Positions 42,354-62,588 of a stretch of DNA of 64,000 bases are shown here, piece after piece. The position numbers were made by a program, and so were the translations under genes. Position 1 is the stretch's first letter. Each line of letters opens with the position of its first letter. The notes beneath the pieces are model-generated. The model did not search any database and was not told the DNA's origin. It saw only the letters and a list, made by a program, of their open reading frames with translations. This DNA comes from Alphaproteobacteria bacterium (lineage in GTDB: Bacteria; Pseudomonadota; Alphaproteobacteria; JANQMY01): NCBI GenBank assembly GCA_028289425.1, contig JANQPL010000014.1, positions 122,170 through 186,169 on the forward strand. Direction: 5' to 3'.

Positions 42354-42377
42354 GGCGCTTCCCCCTTGCCGCAGCCG

Positions 42378-42923: not shown

Positions 42924-42941
42924 CGGCTGAGCTTAGAGCGG

Positions 42942-44945: not shown

Positions 44946-45065
44946 TTGTTCGCCTTTCTCAATGCCGCCAAACCCGCATGGTTAAGCGGATCTTTACGTA
45001 AACCCTCTTTAGTAGCTTGTCACCAAAACACAACGCCAAAAGTAAGGACCGAAGGGGTTTTTCTT

Positions 45066-46734: not shown

Positions 46735-49085
46735 TCAATGCGCAGCGTCTTAGCGCCCGACCATCTTTCGAAGTTGCTCTCGCCGGCGCCGATCACCGCC
46801 GGAATTTGAAGCTCGCCCGCGCGAATTGCCATGTGAGAATTCACACCGCCATAGGCCGTGATCAGCCCGCCGATCTTGTGGGAAAACAACCAATCAAAAC
46901 CGGGATCCGCATTGGGCAGCATGACAATCGCCCCGTCCAATCCGGCAAAATTGTCCGGCGCGACGGTATTTGCTTGGATCGACCGTTGGGTGATGAAGTT
47001 CGGCTCATCCGCCCCCATTTCCATCTGCCAAACATCGTCGGCACCAGTGATCAGACTTGGCAAGATCAATGCCTTGGTTTTTTCATATTGCGCGCGGCCT
47101 GATTCAATGGCGCGTCCCAACACATCTTTCGGATCATTGACGGTGCCATAAAGCTCATGCACGGCCTGGATGTTGGCAAACGCCAAATCCTCACGCGTAA
47201 ATCCGTGGCGCGCCCCGACCTCGGCAAAAATCTCCATCGCGTCCGATAGATTGCGCGTGAAATGAAACTTCGCCTTTTCGCGGCCTTCAATGCCGGCTTT
47301 CAGGAAATTGAATAATCCAACCACATTGTGGCTGAGATTATGCTCTTTCAGCAAAGCACTGATCTCATTCATCTGTTGAAGCGTCAGCGCAAAGGCCGGA
47401 TGAGAAGCCCTGGCGCCATCTGCCTGTTCGTCCCACCTAAAGTAAGTGTCGGGTGCTGCGTCGTAGCGTGGCGAACAAATGTCGTATGTGCCCGGACGAA
47501 GGTGGCCATATCGATGGAGAAAAGCGCTTTTGGTGAGATTTTGGAAATCCGCAGCGATTTCTCCACTCACTGTCGTAAGGCTGCTCAAGAAGGCTTGGTA
47601 GTCTTCCTCACTCAATGCCCCCGCCGTGACCAAGGATCTAAGCAACTGCATGGCAATAAAGCCGGCGCGGGCAAGCCCCGCAAACGGCAAGGTGCCGTAC
47701 CGCTTGCAATCTTCCAGCAGCCAATAGACCTGGGAGATGGCGTCGTCCTGCTTGGCGCAAATTGTTTCATAACGCCGTTGCAACGTCTCGATCTTGGCAA
47801 GGTCCTTTCGCCACAATCCATCGTCGGCGATGATCCGATTGGTGAGGTGCCTCAGGCTTTCTTCGAGAACCAGACGATCGTTTTCGGAAAATCCGTACGC
47901 TGTTAATTCGCGTAGTCGTTCCGGCAGGTCGAGCGTGTAGCAGGAAAACAGGATCTCGAACTCAACCTTGTCATGAAGCGATGGCCGCTCACAGAGCGCA
48001 TCGATGTAGTAATTGGCCAAACGCTCGGCGAGGTCATCCGGCACGTCATTGGGAATGAAAGAATTGAAACTTACCCGAACGTCAATGAACGGCATGCCGT
48101 AGAAGTCGCACAGAAGCGGAAAGCTGCGCAGGTTCCGATACCCGTAATTGTGCCGCTGATAGGCCCAGATCGAATCCGTCACCAATTCCCGATAGAGCGA
48201 TAAAGCGAGAGGTTTCGGCCGCAATCCAATGATTTCCGCCGGGTTCCAATCGGGCATGACACCGAAGACTGTGCGCCGACCAAAAAGGTAAGGATGCGGT
48301 TTTGCGCGTTCCGCTACGCGACGCGCTACAGCACCAAGCATTATGTTGTGCTGCTGAATATCGACACCGCGCGCGCCGTTCTCGACCAGTGGACGTGCCT
48401 GCAACAAAAACAATGCGCCCTTCCGATCGATGGCAAACTCTATATCCAACCGGTCGTTGCCGGTCAGCCGTTCCACTTCCTTAAGGAGCGCCGCCACCTT
48501 TTCGCCAATCGGATCGTCGACCTGCTCGGCCGAGCGGCTGATGATCAGTGTGCGATGATCGTTCGACGTACCGGAGGTAATGAACTCGGTATCGCCTTCC
48601 TCGCTGAAATTCAGAACTATGTATGGCGCGCCCGTGTTCGGATCGTAGGAAAACGCAACCCCGCTTGCCACCACGTCGCGCAGCATTGGTTGGATGAGAA
48701 CCTGGTGATCGGTGTGATCATCGCCATACGATGCGTATACCTGCTCGACGGCAAGCTCAAGCGCCCGTGGGCCCTCCACATTGAGCACACTTAGATATTC
48801 ACCTGCGTGTGATGCGTCTGCGCCGTCTTCCCCGAGGGCGCTGCTGCGCACAATCATTGGGGCTGCCGCCCATTCATTCCTGAAAATGCGGTTCACCATC
48901 TGGCGCCGGTTGTCGCGCCAGGCGCCGAGCGTCACGACTTCAGCCGGCAGAATCGTCGCGGAACGGATCTGCGCCGAAAGCCCGTGCAGTGTGTCGGCTT
49001 TACTTCCAAAGCGAAAAGCCTCGGGGCGCTGTCGTTCAAGGTCGAGCGCGTACCGATTCGAAGCCGACGACATTGCATTTTTCAT
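46701..49085 (-). CDS. PEP-utilising enzyme with rifampin-phosphotransferase-like architecture: N-terminal PPDK_N ATP-grasp domain, a central domain, and a C-terminal His swivel domain, with no PEP/pyruvate TIM barrel.
   Basis: N-terminal PEP-synthase ATP-grasp signature (FGSKADTL...SSALGEDG). C-terminal mobile-domain catalytic His in GGVNSHMAIRAGELQIPAV. 794 aa. Confidence 0.7.
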   Translation of the reverse strand: MKNAMSSASNRYALDLERQRPEAFRFGSKADTLHGLSAQIRSATILPAEVVTLGAWRDNRRQMVNRIFRNEWAAAPMIVRSSALGEDGADASHAGEYLSVLNVEGPRALELAVEQVYASYGDDHTDHQVLIQPMLRDVVASGVAFSYDPNTGAPYIVLNFSEEGDTEFITSGTSNDHRTLIISRSAEQVDDPIGEKVAALLKEVERLTGNDRLDIEFAIDRKGALFLLQARPLVENGARGVDIQQHNIMLGAVARRVAERAKPHPYLFGRRTVFGVMPDWNPAEIIGLRPKPLALSLYRELVTDSIWAYQRHNYGYRNLRSFPLLCDFYGMPFIDVRVSFNSFIPNDVPDDLAERLANYYIDALCERPSLHDKVEFEILFSCYTLDLPERLRELTAYGFSENDRLVLEESLRHLTNRIIADDGLWRKDLAKIETLQRRYETICAKQDDAISQVYWLLEDCKRYGTLPFAGLARAGFIAMQLLRSLVTAGALSEEDYQAFLSSLTTVSGEIAADFQNLTKSAFLHRYGHLRPGTYDICSPRYDAAPDTYFRWDEQADGARASHPAFALTLQQMNEISALLKEHNLSHNVVGLFNFLKAGIEGREKAKFHFTRNLSDAMEIFAEVGARHGFTREDLAFANIQAVHELYGTVNDPKDVLGRAIESGRAQYEKTKALILPSLITGADDVWQMEMGADEPNFITQRSIQANTVAPDNFAGLDGAIVMLPNADPGFDWLFSHKIGGLITAYGGVNSHMAIRAGELQIPAVIGAGESNFERWSGAKTLRIDCANRKVDVIA

Positions 49086-49098
49086 TGTCGTAAAGCCG

Positions 49099-49854
49099 TC
49101 ACGCGGCGCGTTTTGCCGCCCAAACGCGGGTTGTATAAGGCACCTGTATGCTCGGAGCTTTCAATGCCCGCAGTTGGTTTTCGATTTTGTCAATGATGGC
49201 GCCAAAGCCATCGCCTGCCTGCCGATGCAGCGTTGCATGCGAACGCCACGCTTCCACAACATCGTCGACCTGCTGCTCGTGCAAGATCGTGCCTTCGATC
49301 TTCTCTACGGGGCCGAACAAACCACTCTTGTTGATTTCGTCAGTCTGGTCTTCACGACGCGTGCCGTATCCATATTCGGGGATTGCATCAGAAATGATGC
49401 CTTCGATTTCCGCCTGGATCGGATCGGAAAGATCCCGATGGTTCCACATGGCCGCAAACCAACCACCTGGCTTTAGAATGCGGGCCGTTTCCGTGAGAGA
49501 TGCTTGACGATCTGTGACGTTAAAGGACGAACCGAAGGTGACAATATCGAACATGCTGTCGTCCTGACCGGTATCTTCCGCCGTGTTTTCGATGTACGCG
49601 ACCACGTTCGGCAACTGCTTTGTCCGCTGTTGGCCCAGCGCTCTCATATTGTCGTTTGGCTCGATAGCCGTCACTTCAAGACCACGGTCAGCCAACATTA
49701 ATGTGAGATGCGCTACGCCCGCGCCGATATCACAAGCACGCGCCCCTTGTTTGGCACCGCACGTGACCAGCAATTCGTCAATCGCGCTGTCAGAGTAATC
49801 TGGGCGCTTCAAATAAGCCTGCGCTAAATCCGAATAATCCCAAGCGGTTTTCAT
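49099..49854 (-). CDS. Class I SAM-dependent methyltransferase.
   Basis: Motif I DIGAGVAHLT. The start is set at the ATG at 49854 (MKTAWDYS). The ORF track begins at 49965. Confidence 0.7.
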   Translation of the reverse strand: MKTAWDYSDLAQAYLKRPDYSDSAIDELLVTCGAKQGARACDIGAGVAHLTLMLADRGLEVTAIEPNDNMRALGQQRTKQLPNVVAYIENTAEDTGQDDSMFDIVTFGSSFNVTDRQASLTETARILKPGGWFAAMWNHRDLSDPIQAEIEGIISDAIPEYGYGTRREDQTDEINKSGLFGPVEKIEGTILHEQQVDDVVEAWRSHATLHRQAGDGFGAIIDKIENQLRALKAPSIQVPYTTRVWAAKRAA

Positions 49855-49980
49855 TGTTAACCCCGTGCTCAAAAAGTTTTGGTAACCAAGAACTAGGCGA
49901 AAGCTCTTGAAAATTCGTTTCGATTTTTCGGGAATTCGGAAAGAAAAAATTAACAAACAGATCATGTTGGTGTACGGATC

Positions 49981-50595
49981 ATGGTTAAACGCGCGTTAAT
50001 AGAACAATTCGCCGATGCAGAGCGGATAAGGGACGACTCCCCTCTTCAGAGGTCGGACCAGGGATGTGTTGTTTGGATTACGGGGCTTTCCGGTGCCGGT
50101 AAATCAACGGTCGGGAACATCTTGAAATCACGGCTATTGGCCAAAGGGCGGCGCACAATATTCCTTGACGGCGATGCGCTTCGGGGCGTCTTCGCCATTG
50201 GTGACCGTTTCGATCCCAATGCGCGGCTTGAACTTGCCCGGAGCTATGGGCGCTTGTGCCAATTACTGGCATCTCAAGGGCATACGGTAATTTGTGCCAC
50301 CATCTCCATGCGCAACGTGGTCTATGACTGGAACCGCAAGAACCTGCCGAATTATGTAGAGGTGTTCTTGGACGTGCCGCTGGAAGTACGCCAGGCCCGT
50401 GATCCGAAAGGATATTACGCGGCGGTCCACAACGGCACACTGAACAATTTCGCGGGTCAAGACCAGCGGGTCGATGTACCGCCGTCACCCGACATTCATA
50501 TCGCACCGGAGTCGGCCGCCACGCCCGAAGAGATCTGCGATCAGATCGAAGCGAAGCTGGATAAAAATTTATCCGTAAAGGGACAAGTCGCCTGA
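49981..50595 (+). CDS. cysC: Adenylyl-sulfate (APS) kinase.
   Basis: P-loop ITGLSGAGKST and LDGDALR motifs. 204 aa. It faces the methyltransferase gene across a divergent AT-rich promoter region. Confidence 0.8.
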   Translation: MVKRALIEQFADAERIRDDSPLQRSDQGCVVWITGLSGAGKSTVGNILKSRLLAKGRRTIFLDGDALRGVFAIGDRFDPNARLELARSYGRLCQLLASQGHTVICATISMRNVVYDWNRKNLPNYVEVFLDVPLEVRQARDPKGYYAAVHNGTLNNFAGQDQRVDVPPSPDIHIAPESAATPEEICDQIEAKLDKNLSVKGQVA

Positions 50596-51321
50596 GGCCA
50601 CGCGCCGTTCGTAGTAGGCGAGATCTTCTTCGTTATCGCACTCGCCCCAGCTTCCCTGGACGGGCGACGTCCCGATTTTCACGCCTTCCATAATCAGCCG
50701 CTGCAGAAGGCTCGTCATGTCAAGTTTGTCCCGCACGGCACCGATCAAAGGTTCAATCACGCTTTTGGTTTTCGACCAGCCTTCGGGCGTGAATTTCAAC
50801 AGGCCCATATATTGCCCTTTGATGTCCGCCATCGAATTTGTCTTGCCGCCAATCTCGGTGAGATGACCGTTGTCATCCGTCTGGAATGTTTCTGCATCGC
50901 TCAGTGGATCATCGAATCGGTCTTTCCACAGCGCCGCCCAATGCGGATCGTAGCTGATGGCGATATCGTCCGTACACCGCGATAACCTGATGACCGTCAA
51001 CGGGTCATAGAAGATGTCGCTGTAGCTTACGATGGTCGGTCCCTGCGCTAGCCATTCATCGGCGGCGGACAGGCTTGCCACCATGTTGGTTTCGGACCAA
51101 CGCGGATTGTGGAAACGCGTTTCGCCGAATTCCTCCAGCATATCCGCCTTATAGCCCGTGCACAGCGCAATGTGGCTGACGCCGGCTTCTTCCAGCGATG
51201 CGAGTTGGCGTTCGATCAAAGATCGGCCCGCCAGCTTAATCAGCCCTTTGGGCCGCGCTGCCGTGCTGTTTCCCATGCGGCTGCCACGACCTGCCGCAAG
51301 AATGAGCCCTCTCGCCCCCAT
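50569..51321 (-). CDS. Sugar-phosphate / phospho-base nucleotidyltransferase (LicC / GlmU-N-like).
   Basis: LAAGRGSRMG nucleotide-binding loop. The start is set at the ATG at 51321. The ORF track begins at 51537. Confidence 0.6.
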   Translation of the reverse strand: MGARGLILAAGRGSRMGNSTAARPKGLIKLAGRSLIERQLASLEEAGVSHIALCTGYKADMLEEFGETRFHNPRWSETNMVASLSAADEWLAQGPTIVSYSDIFYDPLTVIRLSRCTDDIAISYDPHWAALWKDRFDDPLSDAETFQTDDNGHLTEIGGKTNSMADIKGQYMGLLKFTPEGWSKTKSVIEPLIGAVRDKLDMTSLLQRLIMEGVKIGTSPVQGSWGECDNEEDLAYYERRVASGDLSLYG

Positions 51322-51481
51322 TTCCCTCAACTCCAGCTGTGAAACCTCGCCAGCAGTATGTGGAAACGAGGGTAAATCGCTGCTTAACCGGGCCAAATAG
51401 TGCAGAAACCCTAACCTATTCGCCCCTCCGCTTGGCTTTCTGCTATAGTTGCCTGCGCTAAAGACCGCCAGGGAGACACAG

Positions 51482-52078
51482 ATGACGTCAGCGACAACGG
51501 ATAAACGGGCAAGTTTCACGGCTATGCAGGACGGCACGCCGGAGGACTACAAGATCATTAGCGAAAGCTCACGACCTTTTAGTCAGGACCTCCCAAATCG
51601 CGTCCTTTCGCATCTTAAGTTGTTGGGCGATGACCACGGTGGCTTCGCAATCGATCGTCTTACCCACTCGCTGCAATCAGCCACGCTTGCGCACCGGGCA
51701 GGAAAAGATGAGGAATATGTGGTCTGCGCATTGCTTCACGACATCGGGGATTCGCTGGCGTGTTATAACCACGCAGAATTGGCGGCCACCATGCTTTATC
51801 CCTTCGTGTCGGAAGCGAACCATTGGATGGTCGAAAAGCACGGCATTTTTCAAGGGTACTATTTCTTCCATCATTTGGGCCTTGATCGGGACATGCGGGA
51901 GGAATATCGCGGGCACCCTCATTTCGAACACTGCGCCCAATTCTGTCACCAATTCGATCAGAACGCCTTCGATCCGGACTACGACACCATGCCGCTCGAG
52001 GCTTTCGAACCGATGGTCCAGCGCGTGATGGCCAAGCCAAAACGCAGTATCTATATGCGGGAAAGCAAAGCGGCATAA
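51482..52078 (+). CDS. HD-domain protein (PhnZ-like HD phosphohydrolase/oxygenase superfamily).
   Basis: H...HD...H...H...D pattern (LAHRAG, LLHDIGD, HWMVEKHG, FHHLGLD). 198 aa. Confidence 0.55.
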   Translation: MTSATTDKRASFTAMQDGTPEDYKIISESSRPFSQDLPNRVLSHLKLLGDDHGGFAIDRLTHSLQSATLAHRAGKDEEYVVCALLHDIGDSLACYNHAELAATMLYPFVSEANHWMVEKHGIFQGYYFFHHLGLDRDMREEYRGHPHFEHCAQFCHQFDQNAFDPDYDTMPLEAFEPMVQRVMAKPKRSIYMRESKAA

Positions 52079-52313
52079 AAGCGGGTCGGGTCGATCGGAT
52101 CGAAACCCTGGCTTGATGCGACACACGCATTGAGTTCTGATCACCGCGAGTTCTGATCACCGCGGCGCTAAGATCGCTTGCCGTATGGGCAAGGCTGGAT
52201 AACCCCGGCATACAACCATCAAAGTTGCGTTGAGGGGTCAAACTCAATATTGATTGTCGCGCGCTGATATGCGCGCCAATGAGCGACGACGCAAAATAGA
52301 GTAGGTCGACAAA

Positions 52314-53504
52314 ATGTCAGAGAATTTGGAAGCCTTTCGCAAGGAAGTTCAAGACTGGCTGGCTGAAAATTGCCCGCCTTCCATGCGGACACCCATGCCC
52401 GAGGACGAAACGGTTTGGGGCGGCCGCAACGCCACCTACAAAAATCGGGAATCCAAACAGTGGCTGGACGCCATGGGCGCCAAGGGATGGACGTGCCCGA
52501 CTTGGCCAAAGGAGTATGGCGGCGGCGGACTTTCGAAGGAAGAAAACAAAATCCTGCAACAGGAATTGCGGCGCATCAACGCCCGTCCGGCGCTTGTCAG
52601 CTTCGGCATCATGATGCTGGGCCCTGTTCTTCTGGAGTATGGCAATGAAGAACAAAAACAGGAGCACATTCCCAAAATTGTCCGTGGTGAGATTCGCTGG
52701 TGCCAAGGCTATAGCGAGCCGGGGGCTGGGTCTGATCTTGCGGGACTGCAAACGCGCGCGATCGAAGACGGTGACGACTACGTCATTAACGGACAGAAAG
52801 TTTGGACGTCCTATGCCAATTACGCGGACTGGATTTTCTGTCTTGTGCGCACGGACACATCCGTGAAGCATGAAGGCATCAGCTTCATACTTTTTGACAT
52901 GACCACCAAAGGTGTCACCACAAAGCCGATCAAGTTGATTAGCGGTTCATCTCCCTTCTGTGAAACTTTTTTTGACGATGTACGCGTCCCGAAGGCCAAT
53001 ATGGTTGGACGCGTGAACGGCGGATGGGAGATTGCGAAACGGTTGCTTCAACACGAGCGGTCCAGCATCTCCGCATCCGGCTTCACCGGTGGGTCTTCCG
53101 TCCCCATGCAAGACGTGGCGAAGGAATACTCGGGCGAAGCCAACGGTCGGATTGCCGATGGATCTCTGCGTGAGTCAATTGCGCAGCATCGGATGAACGC
53201 GCAAGCCTTCCAACTTACGCTCAAGCGGTCGGCGGAAGAGTCCAAAGCCGGTATGGGCCCCGGGGCGGCATCTTCGATATTCAAATCCTACGGCGCCGAA
53301 CTCAACAAAATGAAATATGACTTGTTAATGGAGGCCATGGGCACGCAAGCGCTCGGCTGGGAAGGCGATGGCTTCGACGCCGAAGAGCTCAACGTGACCC
53401 GCAGCTGGCTTCGTTCGAAAGCGAATTCTATTGAAGGCGGCACGACGGAAATCAACCTAAACGTCGTTGCAAAACGCGTTCTGGGTCTCAACGATCATCA
53501 GTAG
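52314..53504 (+). CDS. Acyl-CoA dehydrogenase family protein (pair 2, partner 1).
   Basis: ACAD fold with a C-terminal IEGGTTEI motif. Confidence 0.8.
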   Translation: MSENLEAFRKEVQDWLAENCPPSMRTPMPEDETVWGGRNATYKNRESKQWLDAMGAKGWTCPTWPKEYGGGGLSKEENKILQQELRRINARPALVSFGIMMLGPVLLEYGNEEQKQEHIPKIVRGEIRWCQGYSEPGAGSDLAGLQTRAIEDGDDYVINGQKVWTSYANYADWIFCLVRTDTSVKHEGISFILFDMTTKGVTTKPIKLISGSSPFCETFFDDVRVPKANMVGRVNGGWEIAKRLLQHERSSISASGFTGGSSVPMQDVAKEYSGEANGRIADGSLRESIAQHRMNAQAFQLTLKRSAEESKAGMGPGAASSIFKSYGAELNKMKYDLLMEAMGTQALGWEGDGFDAEELNVTRSWLRSKANSIEGGTTEINLNVVAKRVLGLNDHQ

Positions 53505-53515
53505 GCAGACATAAG

Positions 53516-54655
53516 ATGGGTATGGTTTTGACGGAGGAGCAACAGCTCCTAAAAGATTCTGCGCGGGATTTTATTGAGGCAAAATCGCCGGTCACGGCAT
53601 TCCGCGCCCTGCGGGACAATGATGACCCCAAGGGCTATTCGCCCGACCTCTGGAAGGAAATGGTCGACCTTGGTTGGGCGGGCATTTTGATCCCCGAGGA
53701 GTTTGGCGGTCTCGACTTCGGCATGCAGGGGCTGGGCCTGGTTCTTGAGGAAGCAGGCAAAACGCTTACCGCATCGCCATTGGTGTCCACCGTTCTTACA
53801 TGCGGGTCGGCCTTGATGCTCGGCGGCACACAAGCACAAAAGCAAGAATTCCTGCCTAAGATCGCGGCGGGCGACGTATTGATGTCGCTGGGGCTTGAAG
53901 AAAATGCGCATCACGCACCGACGGCAATCTCGACAAAGGCTGAAAAATCCGGCGATGGATATACGATTTCCGGCAAGAAGACCTTTGTCTTGGACGGCCA
54001 CATCGCCAACCAGCTGATTGTCGTTGCCCGCACCGGCGGAACGGGCGAAGACATCAACGGCATCACATTGTTCCTGGTGCCCACCAACGCCCCCGGAGTT
54101 TCCATCCAACGGACGACCATGGTCGATAGCCGGAACGCGGCGAACATAGAGCTCAACAACGTGTCTGTCGGCGCCGATGCGGTGCTCGGCAGCGTAGACG
54201 GCGGCACCGACCTTCTGGAGCAGGTGCTAGATCGTGCCCGCATCGGGCTTGCCGCCGAAATGCTCGGCAGCGCTCAGCACGTCTTTGATGAAACCTTGGC
54301 TTACATTAAAGAACGAAAGCAATTCGGCGTGGTGATCGGTCAGTTCCAAGCCTTGCAGCACCGTGCCGCGAAGATGTTCACGGAGCTCGAGCTTTGCCGG
54401 TCCGTGGTGATGGAAGCGCTCACGGCCGTTGATGAAAAAGCGAACAATGTCCCGCTGCTCGCAAGCCTTGCCAAAGGCAAGGTATCGGAAGCCTTCCATC
54501 TGATCGCGCGCGAAGGCGTGCAAATGCACGGCGGAGTCGGCATGACAGATGAGTATGATGTGGGATTATATCTAAAACGGTCGGCCGTCGTCGAACAGGC
54601 TTTTGGCGGCCCTCGCTATCACAGCGACCGTTACGCTCAGCTCGAAGGATTTTAG
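53516..54655 (+). CDS. Acyl-CoA dehydrogenase family protein (pair 2, partner 2).
   Basis: ACAD fold with C-terminal GGVGMTDEYD...YLKRS. It starts 11 bp after the previous ACAD. Confidence 0.8.
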   Translation: MGMVLTEEQQLLKDSARDFIEAKSPVTAFRALRDNDDPKGYSPDLWKEMVDLGWAGILIPEEFGGLDFGMQGLGLVLEEAGKTLTASPLVSTVLTCGSALMLGGTQAQKQEFLPKIAAGDVLMSLGLEENAHHAPTAISTKAEKSGDGYTISGKKTFVLDGHIANQLIVVARTGGTGEDINGITLFLVPTNAPGVSIQRTTMVDSRNAANIELNNVSVGADAVLGSVDGGTDLLEQVLDRARIGLAAEMLGSAQHVFDETLAYIKERKQFGVVIGQFQALQHRAAKMFTELELCRSVVMEALTAVDEKANNVPLLASLAKGKVSEAFHLIAREGVQMHGGVGMTDEYDVGLYLKRSAVVEQAFGGPRYHSDRYAQLEGF

Positions 54656-54685
54656 AGCTCAGACAAGAATGTAAGGAGGATACCC

Positions 54686-55528
54686 ATGGCCGAGGCAAAC
54701 TCGTATGAAGCAATTTTGGTCGATCGGCCGCGGGACCACATCCAGCGCGTCACCCTAAACCGGCCAGACAAACGCAATGCGCTCAGCAATATTCTCCGCA
54801 CCGAGATTTTGGATGCTCTGACAAAAGCGGACCAAGACCCGGAGATACATGTGTCCATTTTGCGAGGGGCCGGCAAGTGCTTCTGCGCTGGATACGATCT
54901 GGGTGGGGATAATCGAAAAGATCAGCCCTACTATACGCCTGGGGGGCTCGGCCAATGGCCGCGCCACGTGATCGAGGGCTCGTTCACCATCTGGGATTTG
55001 GCAAAGCCCGTGATCGCTCAGGTGCACGGTTACTGCCTGGCCGGCGGGTCGGAGTTGGCGACCGCCTGTGATCTTGTCTATGTGGCCGAGGATGCCCAAA
55101 TCGGCTACCCCCCGGTGCGCCTGATGAGCCCGCCGGACATGCAATTCCATCCGTGGTTGATGGGCATGCGGGATGCCATGGAACATATGCTGACCGGGGA
55201 TTCCATCAGTGGCATCGAAGCCGCCCGAAGCGGCTTCGCCAATCGGGCGGTGCCGGCGGAACAATTGGAGGAGTTTGTGCTCGACCGGGCCGAGCGGGTA
55301 GCCAAAGTGCCCACGGACATTCAACAGATCAACAAGCGCAGCGTGCATCGCGCTATGGAAATCATGGGGGTTCGCTCGGCCATCCGGTCAGGCACAGAAA
55401 TGCAGGCGCTGGCCTTCCAAACGGAGAGCTTCAAGGAATACATCCAAGAATTCAAAAAAGGCGTAAGCCACGCCCTCAATGTACGCGACAAGAAATTCGG
55501 CGATTACCGCACCAAATCCGATGATTAG
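54686..55528 (+). CDS. Enoyl-CoA hydratase/isomerase (crotonase) family protein.
   Basis: Oxyanion-hole region FCAGYDL and a second GG...E motif. 280 aa. Confidence 0.8.
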   Translation: MAEANSYEAILVDRPRDHIQRVTLNRPDKRNALSNILRTEILDALTKADQDPEIHVSILRGAGKCFCAGYDLGGDNRKDQPYYTPGGLGQWPRHVIEGSFTIWDLAKPVIAQVHGYCLAGGSELATACDLVYVAEDAQIGYPPVRLMSPPDMQFHPWLMGMRDAMEHMLTGDSISGIEAARSGFANRAVPAEQLEEFVLDRAERVAKVPTDIQQINKRSVHRAMEIMGVRSAIRSGTEMQALAFQTESFKEYIQEFKKGVSHALNVRDKKFGDYRTKSDD

Positions 55529-55614
55529 CGCTCGCGCATTCCACTGATCTGCACGGCGCCCTCGCGCGTAAGTGAGATCAATGGGGCGGAAGGAGTGTTA
55601 CAGTCTGTAACCAT

Positions 55615-57963
55615 TTGGCCGTTGACCGATTTCCTTCCTTTTGCAATGCAACGCCCAGCGCACAACCATTCTGGGGGCTTGTCTTGATTATTCCCGTTCG
55701 GCGTATTGTCCGTCTTCTGTTTTCTGTCAGTTTTCTCATTGTAGTGACCAACCTTGCGGGGTGTGCCGCCTTGAACGCCAAACAAGTCACGCTGGAACAA
55801 CGCCTCGATATGTTCCCGAAGGGGCCGTATCCCGTGAAAGAAGCGGTCACCATTCGCTGGAACGATCATCAAGTTCCTTTTGTGGAAGCAAGTAATGACA
55901 ATGACCTGGCCTTTGCGCTCGGTCTTGTGCATTTCCATTTGCGCGGCGGACAGATGACCTTGCTGCATCGCATTGCCCATGGCCGCTTATCGGAATCCGC
56001 AGGGCCGTTCACGGCCGAAATCGATCACGCCATTCGAATCATTGATTTTGGGTATGCCTCGGAATCGGTTGTGGAACAAATGCCGGACGACACCAAGGCG
56101 TGGCTTGAGAATTATGTCCGTGGTCTGAATTACTACCAAGACAATATGAAAAAGCGGCCGCCAGAGTTCGGCTTACTCAATCTGCGTAAAGAAGAATGGC
56201 GCGTGGAAGACGTCATCACCATCGGCCGCATCGCCAGCACGGACGTCAACTGGCTGACCCTGTTGGGGCTCATGGGCGAGCGGGTGAAGCCGGAATGGGA
56301 ACAGACATTTGCAAATGTGTTGGAAGCAGGCGCCGACCCGGTCACAAGCTTTCGGGGCACCCCCAAGCAAGCGCTGTTGTCGGACTTCCTCGCCGGCATG
56401 AGCCGGTCCGGCAGCAATTCGTGGGCTGTGTCGCCTGAGCGCAGCGCCACCGGCAGTGCCCTCATTGCCAACGACCCCCATTTGGGACTTGTTCTGCCAA
56501 ATCTATGGATCTTGGCGGGGATGAAATCCCCCAGCTATCACGCCGTGGGCTTTATGATTCCGGGCGTGCCGATCGTTGGCGTGGGCCGAAACCCGGATAT
56601 GGCGTGGGGCGGCACGAATTTACGGGCGGCGGTGAGCGACCTTTATGATGTGTCCCGTGCGGACGATCCGCAAATCGTCGAAACGGAAAGCGTGATCAAG
56701 AACCGCCTGTGGTTTAACCGCACGGTCACCTTGCGCCGGTCGGCGTACGGTCCGATCTTGTCGGATTCCCAATTTTTGGCAAAGCGGCCAGGCGAGGAAA
56801 TTGCCATCAAATGGATCGGTCACGAGCCGCGTGATCAAGTGACGGCCCTGCTTGCCGCGGCGCGTGCCTCAACACCGGAAGAGTTTCGGGAGGCCTTCAA
56901 GTCCTTCGCCGTTTCCGCCCAGAACATGGTCTTTGCCGACAAAAACGGTAACATTGGACAGATCATTGCCACCACACTCCCGGTTCGCCAGTACGACACG
57001 TTGGAAGACATCGTTCTGGACCCGGACGATCCCACCTATGAGTGGCAGGGCTATGTGGACGCGACGGATTTGCCGTGGGCCCTGAATCCGCCGGAAGGCT
57101 TCATTGCGTCCGCCAATAATCGACCGGCTGAAACCCCCGTACCGCTTGGGTTCTTTTTCGGCGGCGATGATCGGGTGCGCCGTCTTCAAGAAGTGCTCGC
57201 CGCCAATGACAAAGTGAGCATGGCGGACCTGACTGCATTGCAGCTCGACACCAAGTCGCCGGATGCGGAAGCCATGAAAGAAGCGCTGGTTACGCAGATT
57301 GAGCCCCTCGCGGGATTGGAAGAAGCCTCTGGCTTTGTTTCCGATCTCAAAGGCTGGGACGGTGATTATCGCGCCGATTCAAGGGGCGCTCTGGCTTTTG
57401 AATTGCTGCTCTACCATCTTGTGCCGTCCGTTTACGGGTTTGAAGATGCATCGGACGTACCCCCGCTTCGCCTTCAGTGGCACTACAAAACAAAACTGTT
57501 CTTAAAAGACCTGGCCGCACTGGATGATGCAGCGCGCGAGTCGCTGCTGGTCGAAAGCACAATGAGCGCGGCAGAAGATGCCGAGAAATATGAGATTTGG
57601 GGCGATATCCATACCCTCAAAGTGGGGCACTTGTTGAGCAATGTGCCTGTCATTGGCGGCCGTTATGTGATCGAGGAATATGGTGTCGGCGGCTCGCGCG
57701 AAACGCCCATGAAGACCGCCCACGATCTGGTGAATGAAAAACACTCCGCAAGCTATGGCTCCCAGGCCCGCCACCTCTCAGATATGTCCGACATGGACGA
57801 GAACTATTTTCTGCTGTTCGGCGGTGAAGACGGTTGGATCGGCAGCGAAAACTTCGCCGACATGATGCCGTTGTGGCGCAAGGGGGACTATGTGCGTATG
57901 CCCTTGCGGCTTGAAACGGTTGCGAAAGAGTTCGGGCATGTCTTGACACTTTCACCTCAGTAA
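55615..57963 (+). CDS. Penicillin acylase family Ntn-hydrolase (AHL-acylase-like), probable lipoprotein.
   Basis: The lipobox LAGC follows a hydrophobic signal. The beta-subunit N-terminal nucleophile context is GSNSWAVSPERSATG. 782 aa. The exact start is uncertain. Confidence 0.75.
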   Translation: MAVDRFPSFCNATPSAQPFWGLVLIIPVRRIVRLLFSVSFLIVVTNLAGCAALNAKQVTLEQRLDMFPKGPYPVKEAVTIRWNDHQVPFVEASNDNDLAFALGLVHFHLRGGQMTLLHRIAHGRLSESAGPFTAEIDHAIRIIDFGYASESVVEQMPDDTKAWLENYVRGLNYYQDNMKKRPPEFGLLNLRKEEWRVEDVITIGRIASTDVNWLTLLGLMGERVKPEWEQTFANVLEAGADPVTSFRGTPKQALLSDFLAGMSRSGSNSWAVSPERSATGSALIANDPHLGLVLPNLWILAGMKSPSYHAVGFMIPGVPIVGVGRNPDMAWGGTNLRAAVSDLYDVSRADDPQIVETESVIKNRLWFNRTVTLRRSAYGPILSDSQFLAKRPGEEIAIKWIGHEPRDQVTALLAAARASTPEEFREAFKSFAVSAQNMVFADKNGNIGQIIATTLPVRQYDTLEDIVLDPDDPTYEWQGYVDATDLPWALNPPEGFIASANNRPAETPVPLGFFFGGDDRVRRLQEVLAANDKVSMADLTALQLDTKSPDAEAMKEALVTQIEPLAGLEEASGFVSDLKGWDGDYRADSRGALAFELLLYHLVPSVYGFEDASDVPPLRLQWHYKTKLFLKDLAALDDAARESLLVESTMSAAEDAEKYEIWGDIHTLKVGHLLSNVPVIGGRYVIEEYGVGGSRETPMKTAHDLVNEKHSASYGSQARHLSDMSDMDENYFLLFGGEDGWIGSENFADMMPLWRKGDYVRMPLRLETVAKEFGHVLTLSPQ

Positions 57964-57980
57964 CACCACTTGTTGGAGCG

Positions 57981-59537
57981 ATGATCGACACCACACCGCT
58001 CTTTCGACCCCTTGCCCGGCGCCGATTGGCGCAGATCCATTCACTTGACCCGGTCGCGACACAAGAACGGCAGTTGCTCAAGCTGCTTGCCCGCGCGAGA
58101 CATACAAGGTTTGGCAAGGATCACGGTTTTTCCGATATCAAGACCGTAGCGGATTTTCAGGCGCGGGTGCCGTTGCGCAGTTACGATCAATTCTGGACCG
58201 AGTATTGGCAGGACGGCTATCCGAACACCCCCGATATGACCTGGCCAGGGCCTACCAGGTTTTGGGCGTTATCGTCCGGCACCTCTTCCGCGACCACAAA
58301 ATATATTCCGTGTACGATGGATATGGTTGCGTCGAACAAACGCGCCGCCCTGGACATTTTGTGTTACCAATTGGCAGAAATGCCGGACTTCCGTCCGACC
58401 GACGGCAAAACCTTTATTCTCGGTGGCAGCACGGCTCTTACGGAAGAGGCGCCCGGCTTTTTCTCCGGAGACCTTAGCGGTATTGCTGCAAAGACGGTCC
58501 CATTTTGGGCCAAGCCGTTTACGTTTCCACCGACCGACCTTTCGTTGATTAAGAACTGGGAAGAGAAACTTGAAACCCTTGCCCAGCGATCGCTTAGGGA
58601 AAAAATCCGTGTACTGAGTGGCACACCCATATGGCTGTTACTGCTGTTTCGCCGCGTGCGAAAACTGCGCGACGCTGCCGGACAAAGCGATACCCCTACT
58701 TTTCCCTACCTGCAATTGCTGATCCATGGGGGCACGTCTTACGCGCCCTACAAGGCAGAGACATCTCCCTTTCTTGAGCATGCGGGTGCCGCAACCCGCG
58801 AGGTCTATCCGGCCAGTGAAGGCTTTATTGCCATCGCCGACCGGGGCGACGGTGAGGGGCTTCGGCTTAATCTGGATATCGGGCTTTTCTTTGAGTTCAT
58901 CCCCCTTGAAGAGCTTGAAGCGGAACAGCCCACACGGCATTGGGTGGGCACTCTCGAGCCAGGCATTACCTACGCTGTCGCCATTACCAGCTGCGCCGGC
59001 GTGTTCTCCTATTTGTTGGGAGACGTGGTACGGTTTGTGGGAACAAACCCGCCGCGGCTTCTCATCACCGGGCGAACGTCTTATTCCTTGTCCGAGTTCG
59101 GCGAACATTTAATTGGGGAAGAAATTGAGCGGGCCATATTGGCCGCAGCGAAAATGATCGACCTGAATATTGTCGAGTTCAGTGTAGGCACTGTGTTTGC
59201 GCATCACAATCACGACGCGGGGTCGCACAAATACTTTCTTGAAACCGCCCATCCGGTCGGTCCCAATGCGCGGGAAAAACTGGAGGACCACCTCTCACAA
59301 TTAATTGATGAAGATCTCATTGCCGGCAATGATGACTACGCTTCCCATCGCCGCAATGGGCTGACATTACAGGCGCCCCAAGTAAGCCTGGTGCCGCCCC
59401 AGAGTTTTGCCCAATGGATGCAATCGCGCGGGAAACTGGGCGGTCAGAACAAGGTTCCCCGTGTTATCAACAACAGGGATCTGTTCGACAATCTGGCGGA
59501 GTTTATGGGCGCTCAATCCGTGGCCCGTGAGGGCTGA
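57981..59537 (+). CDS. GH3 family protein (adenylating acyl-acid amido synthetase, bacterial GH3).
   Basis: 518 aa. Layout is that of the GH3 auxin-responsive-promoter family, with N-terminal FRPLARRRL...FW..YW and SSGTSS adenylation-motif regions. Confidence 0.65.
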   Translation: MIDTTPLFRPLARRRLAQIHSLDPVATQERQLLKLLARARHTRFGKDHGFSDIKTVADFQARVPLRSYDQFWTEYWQDGYPNTPDMTWPGPTRFWALSSGTSSATTKYIPCTMDMVASNKRAALDILCYQLAEMPDFRPTDGKTFILGGSTALTEEAPGFFSGDLSGIAAKTVPFWAKPFTFPPTDLSLIKNWEEKLETLAQRSLREKIRVLSGTPIWLLLLFRRVRKLRDAAGQSDTPTFPYLQLLIHGGTSYAPYKAETSPFLEHAGAATREVYPASEGFIAIADRGDGEGLRLNLDIGLFFEFIPLEELEAEQPTRHWVGTLEPGITYAVAITSCAGVFSYLLGDVVRFVGTNPPRLLITGRTSYSLSEFGEHLIGEEIERAILAAAKMIDLNIVEFSVGTVFAHHNHDAGSHKYFLETAHPVGPNAREKLEDHLSQLIDEDLIAGNDDYASHRRNGLTLQAPQVSLVPPQSFAQWMQSRGKLGGQNKVPRVINNRDLFDNLAEFMGAQSVAREG

Positions 59538-59648
59538 CCGCCGGGAGCCACTTTTCAGACTCGTCGATTGGCGCTAGTCTTTATTCGCACCGGGCCGCTT
59601 CACTTTTGGATATCTTCCTCGCCCAACCAATACAACGGAAAACGGATC

Positions 59649-60284
59649 ATGTTGCATCAGCTTGTCTCGACACGAGTGTTTTCGAAAGCCACTTTGATGG
59701 GCGCGGTCGCCCTTGTGGCATCAGCGCCCCTGCTCACGGCGCCGGCGCAGGCGCAGGCGGACGGTCATATGACCGGCACTTACGGCATGGACCCCACCCA
59801 CACCAGCGTTGTCTTTAAGTTGGATCACCTTGGCTTCTCCACTTATATCGGCCGCTTCGATACGGTCGGAGGAACGCTGACCTTCGATGAGAATGACCCT
59901 ACAAAAAGTGCTTTGAGCGTGACCATCGATACGGCCAGCATCAACACCAATAGCGAGGAACTGGAAGAGAAGTTGCGCGCGGAAGATATGTTCAATGCCG
60001 CAGCGCATCCGCAGATCACGTTCGTCAGCACGGGAATTGAAAAGACGGACGACACCGCCGGTAAAATCACGGGCGACCTAAGCGTTGCCGGTGTAACAAA
60101 GCCGGTCACTTTAGACGTCACATTCAACGGCGGTGCGCCAAATCCGTTTTCGCAGAAGATGACGTTGGGGTTCTCAGCAACAGCGGCCATGAAGCGCTCC
60201 GAATTTGGCTTGGACAATTGGTTGCCCGCGGTTGGCGATGACGTGGCGCTGGTGATCGAAACTGAATTCCAGAAGCAAGAATAG
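59649..60284 (+). CDS. YceI family periplasmic protein.
   Basis: A signal peptide and YceI-like beta-barrel motifs (DPTHTSVVFKLDHLGFS). The start is placed at the ATG at 59649. The ORF track begins at 59568. Confidence 0.75.
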   Translation: MLHQLVSTRVFSKATLMGAVALVASAPLLTAPAQAQADGHMTGTYGMDPTHTSVVFKLDHLGFSTYIGRFDTVGGTLTFDENDPTKSALSVTIDTASINTNSEELEEKLRAEDMFNAAAHPQITFVSTGIEKTDDTAGKITGDLSVAGVTKPVTLDVTFNGGAPNPFSQKMTLGFSATAAMKRSEFGLDNWLPAVGDDVALVIETEFQKQE

Positions 60285-60357
60285 CTGATCGTCAGAAACA
60301 CCTATACTGCGGCCCGGCGTGAGGCGCACGCGCCCCGCGCCCCTTTGAGTAAGACCT

Positions 60358-60918
60358 ATGGCTTGGCGTAACACCAGCGAACGGTATGGCATTGTCGCAA
60401 AATCCTTTCATTGGATTTTGTTTTTGCTGATTGCCGGCCTTATTGGCTTTGGACTGTATATGACAAGCCAGACCTTCACGCCGGAAATCTTCACCCTCTA
60501 CAAATGGCACAAAACGATCGGCGTGCTGGTCTTAGCATTGGTCGTCGCACGCGTGGTTTGGCGTTTTGTATCGCCGCCGCCGCCCCTGCCGGCCAATACG
60601 CCGCCTCTGGAACGTTGGGCCGCGCATCTGACACATCTGCTCATCTATGTGGCGATCATCGTCATTCCCGTGAGCGGCTGGCTTATGTCCTCCGCTGCTC
60701 CGTTCCCCAACCTCATTCTGGGTAACATCCAACTGCCGGCCCTGATCGGACAAGATGAAGCGGCCTCCAAGTTTTTTTCGGCGGTGCACTATTGGGCCGG
60801 CCGTGCCTTAATGGCGTTGCTGGTCCTTCATGTTGGTGCCGCTCTTCTTCACCACTTTATCCGCCGCGACCAGATCTTGGTGCGGATGCTTCCCGGAAGT
60901 TTCAGCAGGAAAGCCTGA
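60358..60918 (+). CDS. Cytochrome b561 family protein.
   Basis: The N-terminus ERYGIVAKSFHWILFLL has the conserved heme-ligand His. Four TM helices. 186 aa. Confidence 0.8.
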   Translation: MAWRNTSERYGIVAKSFHWILFLLIAGLIGFGLYMTSQTFTPEIFTLYKWHKTIGVLVLALVVARVVWRFVSPPPPLPANTPPLERWAAHLTHLLIYVAIIVIPVSGWLMSSAAPFPNLILGNIQLPALIGQDEAASKFFSAVHYWAGRALMALLVLHVGAALLHHFIRRDQILVRMLPGSFSRKA

Positions 60919-60920
60919 TC

Positions 60921-61514
60921 ATGAGAACATCCTCTTTGTGCCTCGGTGCCGCGCTGTGCCTTACACCCCTCACAGCCGTGCTTGCCGCACCCTGGACAAT
61001 GGATCCTGAGGCGAGTTCAATCGAATACGCTTATTCCTGGTCCGGTGTGGCAGCGGGTGGCGGTTTCGAATCCTTCAGCGCCGATATCGATTTTGACAAA
61101 GAGGACCTGTCGGGGAGCAGCGTTCACGTGGTGATTCAAATGTCGAGTGTCACGGCCGCCTACAGCCAGGTGCCGACAGAACTTGTCAAACCCGAATGGT
61201 TCGACGTGGATCAATTCCCCGAAGCCGTGTTCGAAAGCAACTCTTTCAGCGCGGCCGATGACGGGAGCTTTGTTGCCGACGGCACACTCACCATGCGTGG
61301 CGTGACGCAGCCGTCCCAATTGACTTTCAATTTTGACACTTACGGTCCGATCCCCGGCAAACCTGGTGCGCTGCAAGCGGTGATGTCGGGTGAAACCACG
61401 CTCAGCCGAACCGCATTCGGCATAGGCCAAGGGAGTTGGTCCGCAACGGATACGTTGGCGGATGAGGTGACCGTCACCGTCAATGTCACGGCGGAACAAT
61501 CCGCAAGTCAATAG
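60921..61514 (+). CDS. YceI family periplasmic protein (second copy).
   Basis: A signal peptide and YceI-like sequence. The start is set at the ATG at 60921, immediately after the cytochrome b561 stop. The ORF track begins at 60792. Confidence 0.7.
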   Translation: MRTSSLCLGAALCLTPLTAVLAAPWTMDPEASSIEYAYSWSGVAAGGGFESFSADIDFDKEDLSGSSVHVVIQMSSVTAAYSQVPTELVKPEWFDVDQFPEAVFESNSFSAADDGSFVADGTLTMRGVTQPSQLTFNFDTYGPIPGKPGALQAVMSGETTLSRTAFGIGQGSWSATDTLADEVTVTVNVTAEQSASQ

Positions 61515-61525
61515 AGCGAACGCGC

Positions 61526-62158
61526 TTAAAAGAACGACAGCAGCAGGTCGGGCACGCCGTACAAAAAGGCTGCGACAATCAAAACGGCAAGCACGATCGA
61601 CGCTGTACCAATGGCGCCGATCAACCCCGACACAAATTGCAACGGGCCAACACGCCGCCGACGCCGTCCAACCAGTTCCCCGTCCTCATCCAACGGCACG
61701 GGCACGGTTTGCCGCTGAACCGACTGGAACCAAACGAAGGCCTGCATTGGTGGTGAAAAAAGACAGAGCAGGCCGCCAACTAGGCCAATTCCGATAACGG
61801 TCATCACATAGATCTGCTGATCGCCTGGCATGTCGAACATGTAACCGTAGATCGCATTCAGGAACAGGCTTGCGGAGATCAACAAAAATAGCCCAAGCCC
61901 CCAACGGGCGACCCGGTGCCCCCGGAACACAAGGATCAACAGCAAGATTTGTAAAACAGCGCCCACTAAAATCTGCAGAAACAAATCCGTGCCGATGTAG
62001 GGGAGTTCGGCAGAGGGCGCAAAAAAGACAGCAGGCAACGCTTCCGTCCACAAAGCGGCCAAGGTGTAAAACTCCTTGCCCAAAATGGCGACGAACAAAA
62101 GTGTCATTAAGATCCGGCCGTTGCGAATATCCGTTTGCGACCAGATTTCGGTGTCCAT
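61526..62158 (-). CDS. Hypothetical integral membrane protein.
   Basis: 210 aa with multiple hydrophobic helices and an RRRRR cytoplasmic loop. Confidence 0.4.
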   Translation of the reverse strand: MDTEIWSQTDIRNGRILMTLLFVAILGKEFYTLAALWTEALPAVFFAPSAELPYIGTDLFLQILVGAVLQILLLILVFRGHRVARWGLGLFLLISASLFLNAIYGYMFDMPGDQQIYVMTVIGIGLVGGLLCLFSPPMQAFVWFQSVQRQTVPVPLDEDGELVGRRRRRVGPLQFVSGLIGAIGTASIVLAVLIVAAFLYGVPDLLLSFF

Positions 62159-62588
62159 CAGCGTCTCCCCTCTGATGACGCCTTTTGGTTGTGCAACCCA
62201 GTCCGCCGGTTTCCCGGTGTTCGATCGCTAGGTTGTAAACCCAACTCGTCCTTACTATCTGGAGCTGTACCCTCTCCACCCCTAGGCCCCCAGGGGCGCA
62301 CCCGCACTGCCGTCTCTCGAACGCCTAAGAGAGCGCGGGTCGCATGTGAATCATCAATGACAGGTCAGATCATGTCAATTGCTGGCGGTTCCAATTTGAA
62401 GCTATTTCGCCACTTTTTGCGGGATTTGAGTGTAAGCCTGGCATTCCTGCCACAATTATTCCCAGGATTCCCCTATGGCAGCGTCAGAATGCCCCTTTTC
62501 TTTGGTCATCGCTAACCACACTATGCGAAAATTTTGGTGACGCCCTGCCGCGAATCCCTTGGCGGCACGTAGCTTTGAGGACACACAC

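Follow-up and report, generated by a model that had tools for sequence, protein, structure and literature searches.

An Ntn-hydrolase of the S45 (penicillin-acylase) family carrying an export signal and a GH3-family acyl-acid amido synthetase constitute a tightly coupled two-gene unit that is kept across many Proteobacteria, and the pair points to a pathway for fatty-acyl amides (molecules of the aminolipid type) that has not been described. We examined the pair in an alphaproteobacterial contig (JANQPL010000014.1), within a stretch of 64,000 nucleotides that is referred to as the window; all features described here lie on its forward strand. The acylase precursor (55684..57963; 759 aa) terminates with TAA at 57961-57963, and the GH3 enzyme (57981..59537; 518 aa) starts with ATG at 57981. 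Both reading frames and the 17-bp gap between them, reported in an earlier sequence-only reading of this DNA, were confirmed; the spacer (57964..57980) contains GGAG at 57975-57978 ahead of the GH3 start codon. The longest open reading frame of the acylase extends from 55615 to 57963. Its true start is likely the TTG at 55684, from which the 759-aa product is an exact match to a database protein (P0121). Both genes are intact, and neither is a pseudogene because both align full-length to homologues.

The proposed assignment of the first enzyme to the penicillin-acylase family is firm, as the Pfam model Penicil_amidase (PF01804) matched with E=3e-151 and 506 bits over profile positions 2-674 of 675. 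Its N-terminus, MIIPVRRIVRLLFSVSFLIVVTNLAGC, is a predicted lipoprotein signal peptide (55684..55764), read from the sequence, in which a positively charged n-region and a hydrophobic h-region are followed by the lipobox L-A-G-C, conforming to the pattern [LVI][ASTVI][GAS]C, with the codon of Cys27 at 55762-55764. The earlier lipoprotein call also holds for most orthologues, in which the signal is kept: the lipobox Cys was found in at least 65 of 92 N-termini by the strict pattern and in about 78 by eye. A few orthologues without it (the Inquilinus group, L011 and L121/L127) may be localized differently. The predicted autoprocessing site and catalytic nucleophile are located at 56410..56424, where G243 precedes S244-N-S-W and S244 would become Ser1 of the beta chain. 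The NDPH motif (56470-56481) contains Pro22-beta and His23-beta, both invariant among 20 orthologues (alignment A2), as is the Asn of the SANNRP motif (57109-57126). The invariant residues in this alignment are G243, S244, N245, P265, H266, and N478, which we take to be the oxyanion Asn. Ser1 and Pro22 of the beta chain are conserved across the whole S45 family (PMC11241749).

An AlphaFold model of the acylase (pLDDT 81.8) has the alpha-beta-beta-alpha fold of the heterodimer type, and its best match in the PDB by Foldseek was D-succinylase from Cupriavidus sp. P4-10-C (7EA4/7EBY) with a TM of 0.77; cephalosporin acylase precursors matched with TM 0.66–0.68. By sequence, too, D-succinylase is the nearest solved relative (E=5e-49), followed by the cephalosporin (glutaryl-7-ACA) acylases, with MacQ and PvdQ more distant. 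The two enzymes share the nucleophile context GSN(N/S)W (GSNNW in D-succinylase) and the ANDPH motif, but their identity is only 22–24%, and D-succinylase, an industrially studied enzyme, acts on N-succinyl-D-amino acids. To our knowledge, D-succinylase has neither a GH3 partner nor a role as a lipoprotein. The acylase resembles PvdQ, QuiP, and MacQ in its S45 Ntn-hydrolase family and in its predicted export and amide hydrolysis. Its relationship to PvdQ and MacQ is, however, very distant: PvdQ matched by sequence only with E=5e-4, the PvdQ equivalog model (NF051460) scored 28.5 bits against a cut-off of 950, and MacQ ranked behind D-succinylase and the cephalosporin acylases. From these comparisons with PvdQ and MacQ, membership among the AHL acylases was rejected, and the previous description of the nucleophile context as AHL-acylase-like is not diagnostic. 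AHLs are a possible substrate, favoured by no test in this analysis.

The identity of the second enzyme as a GH3 protein was borne out by profile and by fold. The N-terminal (PF03321, 2e-24), middle (PF23571, 4.5e-11), and C-terminal (PF23572, 4.9e-17) GH3 domains all scored above the Pfam cut-offs, and the predicted model (pLDDT 83.7) has the two-domain ANL/GH3 fold. The top 25 Foldseek matches in the PDB are all plant GH3 crystal structures, most with TM 0.64–0.75 and the best with TM 0.68–0.75; chains of GH3.15 and FIN219 match at a lower TM of 0.54–0.57, presumably because of a different domain arrangement. The protein has no signal peptide. By sequence, the plant auxin/jasmonate GH3s are remote (E ~1e-9), whereas the NCBIfam model OlsH_GH3_orni (NF052613) matched over positions 22-515 of 524 with 533.1 bits (E=6e-160). 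This model represents OlsH, a fatty acid:ornithine ligase (lyso-ornithine lipid synthetase) of planctomycetes that was reported in 2025 (PMC12493201). As a guess at the products of the window enzyme, fatty-acyl amino-acid lipids are therefore preferable to the auxin-amino-acid-like conjugates suggested before.

All three nucleotide-binding motifs listed for OlsH (PMC12493201) are present in the window enzyme as SSGTSSATTK (58272..58301), VYPASE (58803..58820), and GVFSYLLGD (58998..59024). S99 in the first motif corresponds to S115 of OlsH, which is essential according to the S115A variant (PMC12493201). The C-terminal motif GGQNKVPR (59439..59462) does not vary within alignments A1 and A3; its counterpart in rice GH3-8 is QYKVPR, and the Lys is kept in every GH3 clade compared. 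The homology to OlsH is full-length, with about 44–46% identity to planctomycete orthologues, and the two groups form sister clades in the tree. Despite this likeness, the score falls below the equivalog cut-off of 620 bits, and the window enzyme was rejected as a bona fide OlsH. Planctomycete proteins score 688–908 bits with this model, the proteobacterial clade 533–610 bits (552–610 for its other members), and Bacteroidota proteins about 408 bits. As judged from sequence, the window enzyme belongs to this proteobacterial clade, sister to bona fide OlsH, and is not of the auxin type.

The gene neighbourhood also differs from that of OlsH. In an unbiased scan of species-representative genomes, the acylase gene lies directly upstream of the GH3 gene in 15 of 24 evaluable proteobacterial loci, but at none of the planctomycete or Bacteroidota loci. 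Genes resembling those for OlsI, the alpha/beta-hydrolase acting as O-acyltransferase, or for the OlsG methyltransferase were found only in three planctomycete loci (L027, L029, and L030); the window lacks them, as do nearly all pair loci. Starting from the acylase side, a GH3 gene adjoins about 50 of 76 evaluable metagenomic loci, with the acylase first in 39, the GH3 gene first in nine, a convergent arrangement in one, and the two genes within 3.5 kb in two. Synteny in relatives, the check that the sequence-only reading had proposed, is thus retained from both sides, and the recurrent linkage lends support to its suggestion that an amide-cleaving and an amide-forming enzyme act together. Among 34 distinct junctions in relatives, 27 are no longer than 20 bp; 4-bp overlaps (ATGA/GTGA) occur in 12 and 1-bp overlaps in six. 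The genes flanking the pair vary from lineage to lineage, and we found no conserved third gene family across the pair loci. The acylase tree mirrors the GH3 tree (Pearson r=0.77 for 56 pairs), two sister copies of the entire pair coexist in one genome, and the pair extends beyond Alphaproteobacteria to Acidithiobacillus and a Bordetella-labelled MAG. This adjacency is far beyond chance and recurs in dozens of unrelated genomic contexts. We found no description of the acylase-GH3 pairing in the literature.

The most likely reading, to which we give somewhat less than even chances, is that the pair is a self-contained, translationally coupled module handling fatty-acyl amides across the inner membrane. 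We infer the substrates, an acyl pool common to both enzymes, and the direction of flux as follows. The acylase precursor would be exported, tethered by a lipid anchor at the periplasmic face, and would cleave itself so that Ser244 becomes the N-terminal nucleophile. It might then hydrolyse an N-fatty-acyl amide bond into a free fatty acid and an amine. Candidate substrates are lyso-ornithine-lipid and N-acyl amino acids, further acyl amides from the envelope or of foreign origin, and perhaps AHLs. In the cytoplasm, the GH3 enzyme would adenylate the free fatty acid with ATP/Mg2+, as its sister OlsH does, and attach the acyl group to an amino acid through its alpha-amino nitrogen; our default guess for this amino acid is ornithine or another basic one. 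An N-acyl amino acid (lyso-aminolipid) would result. The acylase might thereby feed free fatty acid, perhaps together with the amine, to a ligase whose substrate would be scarce in the proteobacterial cytoplasm. The net outcome would be that acyl chains are salvaged or re-routed into an aminolipid without CoA or ACP.

OlsH uses free fatty acid, ATP, and ornithine, and was inactive in living Escherichia coli, where, according to its authors, free fatty acids are lacking (PMC12493201). The outer membrane is enriched in ornithine lipids, and the alphaproteobacterial orders with OlsH homologues also possess OlsB (PMC12971839); a non-primary, salvage-type role is therefore plausible. Several findings count against a fatty-acyl module: the nearest solved acylase relative, D-succinylase, takes a short dicarboxylic acyl group and not a fatty acyl group, the neighbourhoods show no conserved transporter for fatty acids or lipids, the lipobox Cys is missing from a few acylase orthologues, the GH3 score lies under the OlsH equivalog cut-off, and about one-third of the GH3 loci and of the acylase loci in the clade have no partner nearby. 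In E. coli, the LplT/Aas system re-acylates breakdown products of envelope lipids at the cytoplasmic face with ATP-activated free fatty acid. The resemblance would be one of analogy only, as the proteins are unrelated, the chemistry concerns esters and not amides, and LplT/Aas has a dedicated flippase.

The same linkage evidence could also be read as make-and-break homeostasis of one endogenous lipid, a reading that we hold to be rather unlikely. Here, the product that the GH3 enzyme makes in the cytoplasm, a lyso-aminolipid or N-acyl amino acid, would itself be degraded or remodelled by the acylase once it has arrived in the periplasmic leaflet or the outer membrane. The opposite compartments predicted from the lipoprotein signal of the acylase and its absence in the GH3 protein agree with such an arrangement, as does the outer-membrane enrichment of ornithine lipids; a 2026 review of aminolipids names no catabolic enzyme for them (PMC12971839). 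The cycle might be likened, with due reservation, to an amide-lipid Lands cycle or to conjugation and deconjugation by plant GH3 and ILR1, in which an ATP-dependent, amide-forming enzyme of the same GH3 fold is balanced by an amide hydrolase. The plant hydrolases of the ILR1/IAR3 type, however, belong to the M20 family, are not Ntn hydrolases, and are not known as operon partners, and the sequence similarity of the GH3 enzymes is remote. A synthase and a hydrolase for one bond, translated together, would also waste ATP unless the flux were controlled otherwise, and no flippase or exporter was found to be conserved with the pair in the neighbourhoods.

The closest solved relatives bring in non-lipid substrates, for which we see only a small likelihood. 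The pair might conjugate and deconjugate aryl or indole acids (auxin-like), or short dicarboxylic acids in succinyl or glutaryl amino acids, possibly of D-amino acids, given that D-succinylase and then the glutaryl-7-ACA acylases are nearest to the acylase and that plant GH3s, which use aryl and indole acids, share the fold of the ligase. Yet the GH3 enzyme matches OlsH (E=6e-160) far better than it does the plant enzymes (E ~1e-9), D-succinylase shares just 22–24% identity with the acylase, and the predicted lipid anchor of the acylase fits a membrane-associated substrate. The carboxylate-binding Arg57-beta of glutaryl acylase is presumably replaced by Gly in the acylase, according to a manual alignment with a glutaryl-acylase beta-chain sequence, which also argues against such substrates.

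A maturation pathway of the PvdQ type is quite improbable. In this scheme, the GH3 enzyme would N-acylate a precursor and thereby keep it membrane-associated during its assembly or export; the periplasmic acylase would afterwards cleave off the fatty acid and free the mature amine, for example a siderophore or some other secreted metabolite. The lipoprotein signal on the acylase alone is compatible with this division of labour, and the acylase superfamily offers a precedent in PvdL and PvdQ of pyoverdine maturation, in which cytoplasmic acyl-adenylate chemistry is followed by a periplasmic Ntn-hydrolase. PvdQ itself is very distant (E=5e-4; 28.5 versus 950 bits), about 110 loci showed no conservation of NRPS, tailoring, or exporter genes beside the pair, the window pair likewise lacking the NRPS context of PvdQ with PvdL, and inputs of fatty acid and amino acid alone would give a cycle without net product. 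That the gene order is simply inherited, with no pathway in common, is very improbable: the partnerless third of the loci on either side could be read so, but the pair persists amid varying flanks, in both gene orders, with overlapping stop and start codons, across Alphaproteobacteria, Acidithiobacillus, and the Bordetella-labelled MAG, and duplicates as a unit.

Returning to the trans-envelope module, the finding bears on a family whose functions have only begun to emerge. OlsH provided the first function for bacterial GH3 enzymes in 2025, and its authors stated that the roles of many homologues outside planctomycetes are unknown (PMC12493201). The proteobacterial sister clade has a different, obligatory-looking partner, the exported Ntn acylase, which offers a testable handle on its function. 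In the aminolipid review of 2026, the words "degradation", "hydrolysis", and "turnover" do not occur once (PMC12971839). With considerable caution, we suggest that the pair could represent an unrecognized cycle of amide-linked lipids across the proteobacterial envelope, in effect their "Lands cycle" or a route for their salvage. The acylase would then be the first enzyme dedicated to the N-deacylation of aminolipids of the ornithine-lipid type, or of other N-acyl lipids in the envelope, and a CoA/ACP-independent ligase would recapture the released fatty acid in the form of an N-acyl amino acid. In a bolder variant, the Ntn enzyme would act as a periplasmic transacylase in place of OlsI. Such acylases call for caution against default annotation as quorum-quenching enzymes. 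If the pair does serve the turnover or salvage of N-acyl amino acids or aminolipids, it would provide a matched pair of biocatalysts, both independent of CoA, for the synthesis and cleavage of lipoamino-acid surfactants, would account for the substrate supply of a ligase that depends on free fatty acids in Proteobacteria, and would constitute the missing catabolic or remodelling side of aminolipids.

The gene upstream in the pair lies on the forward strand, its longest frame running from a TTG at 55615 to the TAA at 57961–57963. Its product matches Pfam Penicil_amidase over the whole length (E=3e-151), in agreement with the penicillin-acylase family proposed by the sequence-only reading. That reading had placed the pair at 55615–59537, and both co-directional ORFs are indeed there, but the acylase start codon is probably at 55684 rather than 55615. 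Translation from the TTG at 55684 gives a 759-aa product with an exact match in the database (P0121) and, as read from the sequence, a classical lipoprotein signal, MIIPVRRIVRLLFSVSFLIVVTNLAGC. Positions 56410–56424 on the forward strand encode the Gly-Ser site of processing together with the nucleophile (G243/S244-N-S-W). Alignment of the orthologues, with the S45 family residues compared with PMC11241749, identified the invariant Ser1-beta, Pro22-beta, His23-beta, and the Asn of SANNRP in the window acylase. The closest fold to its AlphaFold model (pLDDT 81.8) was D-succinylase (TM 0.77, 22–24% identity), followed by cephalosporin acylases and then by the AHL acylase MacQ and penicillin G acylases. 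PvdQ was barely detectable (E=5e-4), and the PvdQ equivalog model gave 28.5 bits against a cut-off of 950. The description "AHL-acylase-like" found no support in the comparisons run, which covered PvdQ and MacQ. The window acylase is a bona fide S45 Ntn hydrolase and an intact exported amide hydrolase.

The second gene, at 57981–59537 on the same strand, encodes a 518-aa protein with all three Pfam GH3 domains. Together with the fold match of its AlphaFold model (pLDDT 83.7) to plant GH3 crystal structures (JAR1, IAA- and salicylate-type; TM 0.68–0.75), these domains bear out the GH3 family assigned earlier. The plant structures outranked other ANL enzymes as matches, and by sequence the plant GH3s are remote from the window protein (E about 1e-9). 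The 17-bp spacing from the acylase was also correct; the spacer carries GGAG, and the GC content is even across the region. OlsH, a GH3-like enzyme described in 2025 in the planctomycete Singulisphaera, ligates a free fatty acid to ornithine with ATP/Mg2+ and works with the alpha/beta-hydrolase OlsI, which adds a second, ester-linked fatty acid (PMC12493201). The window GH3 aligned end to end with the OlsH model NCBIfam NF052613 (lyso-ornithine lipid synthetase) at 533 bits (E=6e-160), under the equivalog cut-off of 620 bits. It keeps the nucleotide motifs SSGTSSATTK, VYPASE, and GVFSYLLGD, including the counterpart of the essential Ser115, as well as the C-terminal GGQNKVPR. A score panel and a neighbour-joining tree resolved three groups, namely planctomycete OlsH (688–908 bits), a proteobacterial sister clade (533–610 bits) to which the window GH3 belongs, and Bacteroidota (about 408 bits). 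The window GH3 is an intact, cytoplasmic, OlsH-like adenylating ligase. It is likely to work like OlsH, but it falls short of the OlsH equivalog on two counts, the score cut-off and the OlsI operon.

Synteny holds in relatives, as the conservation check suggested with the original claim revealed. The pair is kept in close relatives (GH3 identity 72–78%), one of which has wholly different flanks, with tgt upstream and an IS110 element downstream. A GH3 alignment, searched against a single genome for each GTDB species, gave 80 loci, in which we looked for partners by tblastn with the window proteins. The acylase was directly upstream at 15 of the 24 evaluable proteobacterial-clade loci, including Inquilinus, Paracraurococcus, Acetobacteraceae, Micropepsaceae, Acidithiobacillus, and a MAG labelled Bordetella, with identities to the window proteins of 43–54% for GH3 and 38–52% for the acylase. 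The same tblastn searches found no acylase at the four planctomycete GH3 loci or at the Bacteroidota ones. An acylase alignment searched against metagenomes gave another 80 loci, for which GH3 was located by tblastn and the adjacency classes were checked. The acylase preceded GH3 at 39 of them and followed it at nine; one pair was convergent, GH3 lay within 3.5 kb at two, about 25 had no GH3 in the available flank, and four had flanks too short to judge. Half of all loci are acylase-seeded and so biased to acylase presence; the unbiased estimate is the 15/24 obtained from genomes with the GH3 seed.

Among 34 distinct acylase-then-GH3 junctions, 12 were 4-bp ATGA/GTGA overlaps and six were 1-bp overlaps, and the gap was at most 20 bp in 27. 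The acylase tree mirrors the GH3 tree (pairwise distances, Pearson r=0.77), both being neighbour-joining trees of tblastn-derived sequences. Two loci, L086 and L087, are copies of the whole pair on one 6.5-Mb scaffold (JGI12316J15310_10000004), the first 74/72% and the second 53/51% identical to the window pair. Both trees group them as sisters, which implies that the module was duplicated or acquired as a unit. The second copy on this scaffold is preceded by genes for a divergent GntR/FCD regulator, an alpha/beta-hydrolase, and a PhyH-type dioxygenase.

All-vs-all clustering of the ORFs in about 110 loci revealed no third conserved gene. With recurrent adjacency, tight junctions, and mirrored trees, the pair is a self-contained module that is passed on as a whole and is translationally coupled. 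We rejected as a third component the acyl-CoA dehydrogenases, YceI, and a 210-aa membrane protein, as they recur solely in close relatives or sporadically. Directly upstream of the window acylase, two PimC/PimD-subunit-like acyl-CoA dehydrogenase genes and an enoyl-CoA hydratase gene (52314–55528, forward strand) are arranged as only in the close relatives L001 and L005, the fetched region of L006 showing the hydratase end alone; this arrangement is therefore not part of the module. Directly downstream of GH3 is a YceI/cytochrome b561/YceI trio (59568–61514, forward strand), in which the second YceI probably starts later than called because the ORFs 60358–60918 and 60792–61514 overlap. In the metagenomic locus L137, too, a YceI gene is present, separating the acylase from a convergent GH3. 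The 210-aa predicted multi-pass membrane protein (61526–62158, reverse strand; no Pfam match) has homologues flanking the pair in L001, L005, and L006 and the divergent second pair in L087, so that a loose association with the module as a third component is conceivable.

Alpha/beta-hydrolases adjoin the pair in L013, L020, and L087 and GH3-less acylases in L143, L148, L149, and L158. We rejected an OlsI-like role for them: they differ widely from one another, have no signal peptides, and turn up roughly as often as expected for a common family. Nor did partner-less loci offer alternative partners, their neighbours being unrelated (HisRS, GNAT, PEP mutase, hydantoinase, sensor kinases, GST, and others). 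The sole exception was an FA_desaturase-family gene just 3' of the acylase-less Bdellovibrionota GH3s (L009:8876–9766, an FA_desaturase match; L017:7631–8593, assigned by sequence clustering alone), a hint of a lipid-related role for the clade. No Rfam match was found in 51000–62500 of the window, and promoter and terminator scans around the pair stayed at background level. Elsewhere in the window, a cluster at 42231–51537 may encode a pathway to a sulfated metabolite or glycan. Its products include a 1291-aa protein whose sulfotransferase domain is weak, a GATase/peptidase C26 protein, a PPDK-like PEP-utilising enzyme of 794 aa, a methyltransferase, an APS kinase, and a MobA-like NTP transferase. 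In a 696-aa protein (29128–31218, forward strand), TPR repeats occur together with an adenylate/guanylate cyclase domain and a Trans_reg_C DNA-binding domain.

Of 92 orthologue N-termini, at least 65 matched a strict pattern for the lipobox Cys after a hydrophobic stretch, and inspection by eye raised this to about 78. The exceptions were the Inquilinus group, L011, L094, L103, L105, L109/L110, L122, L164, L158, and two Acidithiobacillus-type loci. The Cys is wholly absent from the Inquilinus group acylases (L015, L089, L093), is replaced by Phe in the metagenomic Acidithiobacillus-type L121 and L127 (LPGF instead of the LPGC of L007), and appears to have given way to a membrane anchor in L158. 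Anchoring or export of the acylase may therefore differ between lineages. The window GH3 lacks both a signal peptide and transmembrane segments; because this enzyme needs ATP and the acylase carries a lipoprotein signal, the two are predicted to act on opposite sides of the inner membrane. In a long-read alphaproteobacterial MAG (OZ253470.1), acylase and GH3 share a single 1308-aa open frame (L020:3604–7530), and a 1-nt indel near 5949–5956 would restore the stop codon between them. We judged this fusion a probable long-read indel or assembly error, because an exported lipoprotein joined to an ATP-dependent ligase is implausible; a genuine fusion would point to a physical acylase-GH3 complex.

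We infer that both enzymes act on fatty-acyl amides, and we tentatively favour a relay between them. The acylase would cleave an N-acyl compound of the envelope to a fatty acid and an amine, and the ligase would then build the released fatty acid into an N-acyl amino acid. A relay fits the finding that OlsH needs free fatty acids and is inactive in living E. coli, for which its authors suggested missing free fatty acids as the reason (PMC12493201). It also fits the co-occurrence of canonical OlsB with OlsH homologues in alphaproteobacterial orders (PMC12971839), which suggests that GH3 is not their primary ornithine-lipid synthase. Somewhat less probable is that the pair keeps the cell's own aminolipid in make-and-break balance or remodels it, for which the enrichment of ornithine lipids in the outer membrane and the silence of a 2026 review on ornithine-lipid degradation speak (PMC12971839). 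Non-lipid substrates, such as auxin-like or succinyl conjugates, are unlikely, and PvdQ-type maturation is more unlikely still, as biosynthetic or export genes are not linked to the pair. That the two genes have no functional link is scarcely credible.

The literature searched, including the OlsH paper (PMC12493201), makes no mention of an acylase partner for bacterial GH3s; the OlsH paper says only that amino acids other than ornithine may be used by homologues from outside the planctomycetes. In the pair, an OlsH-type ligase is joined by another conserved partner than OlsI, an Ntn acylase.
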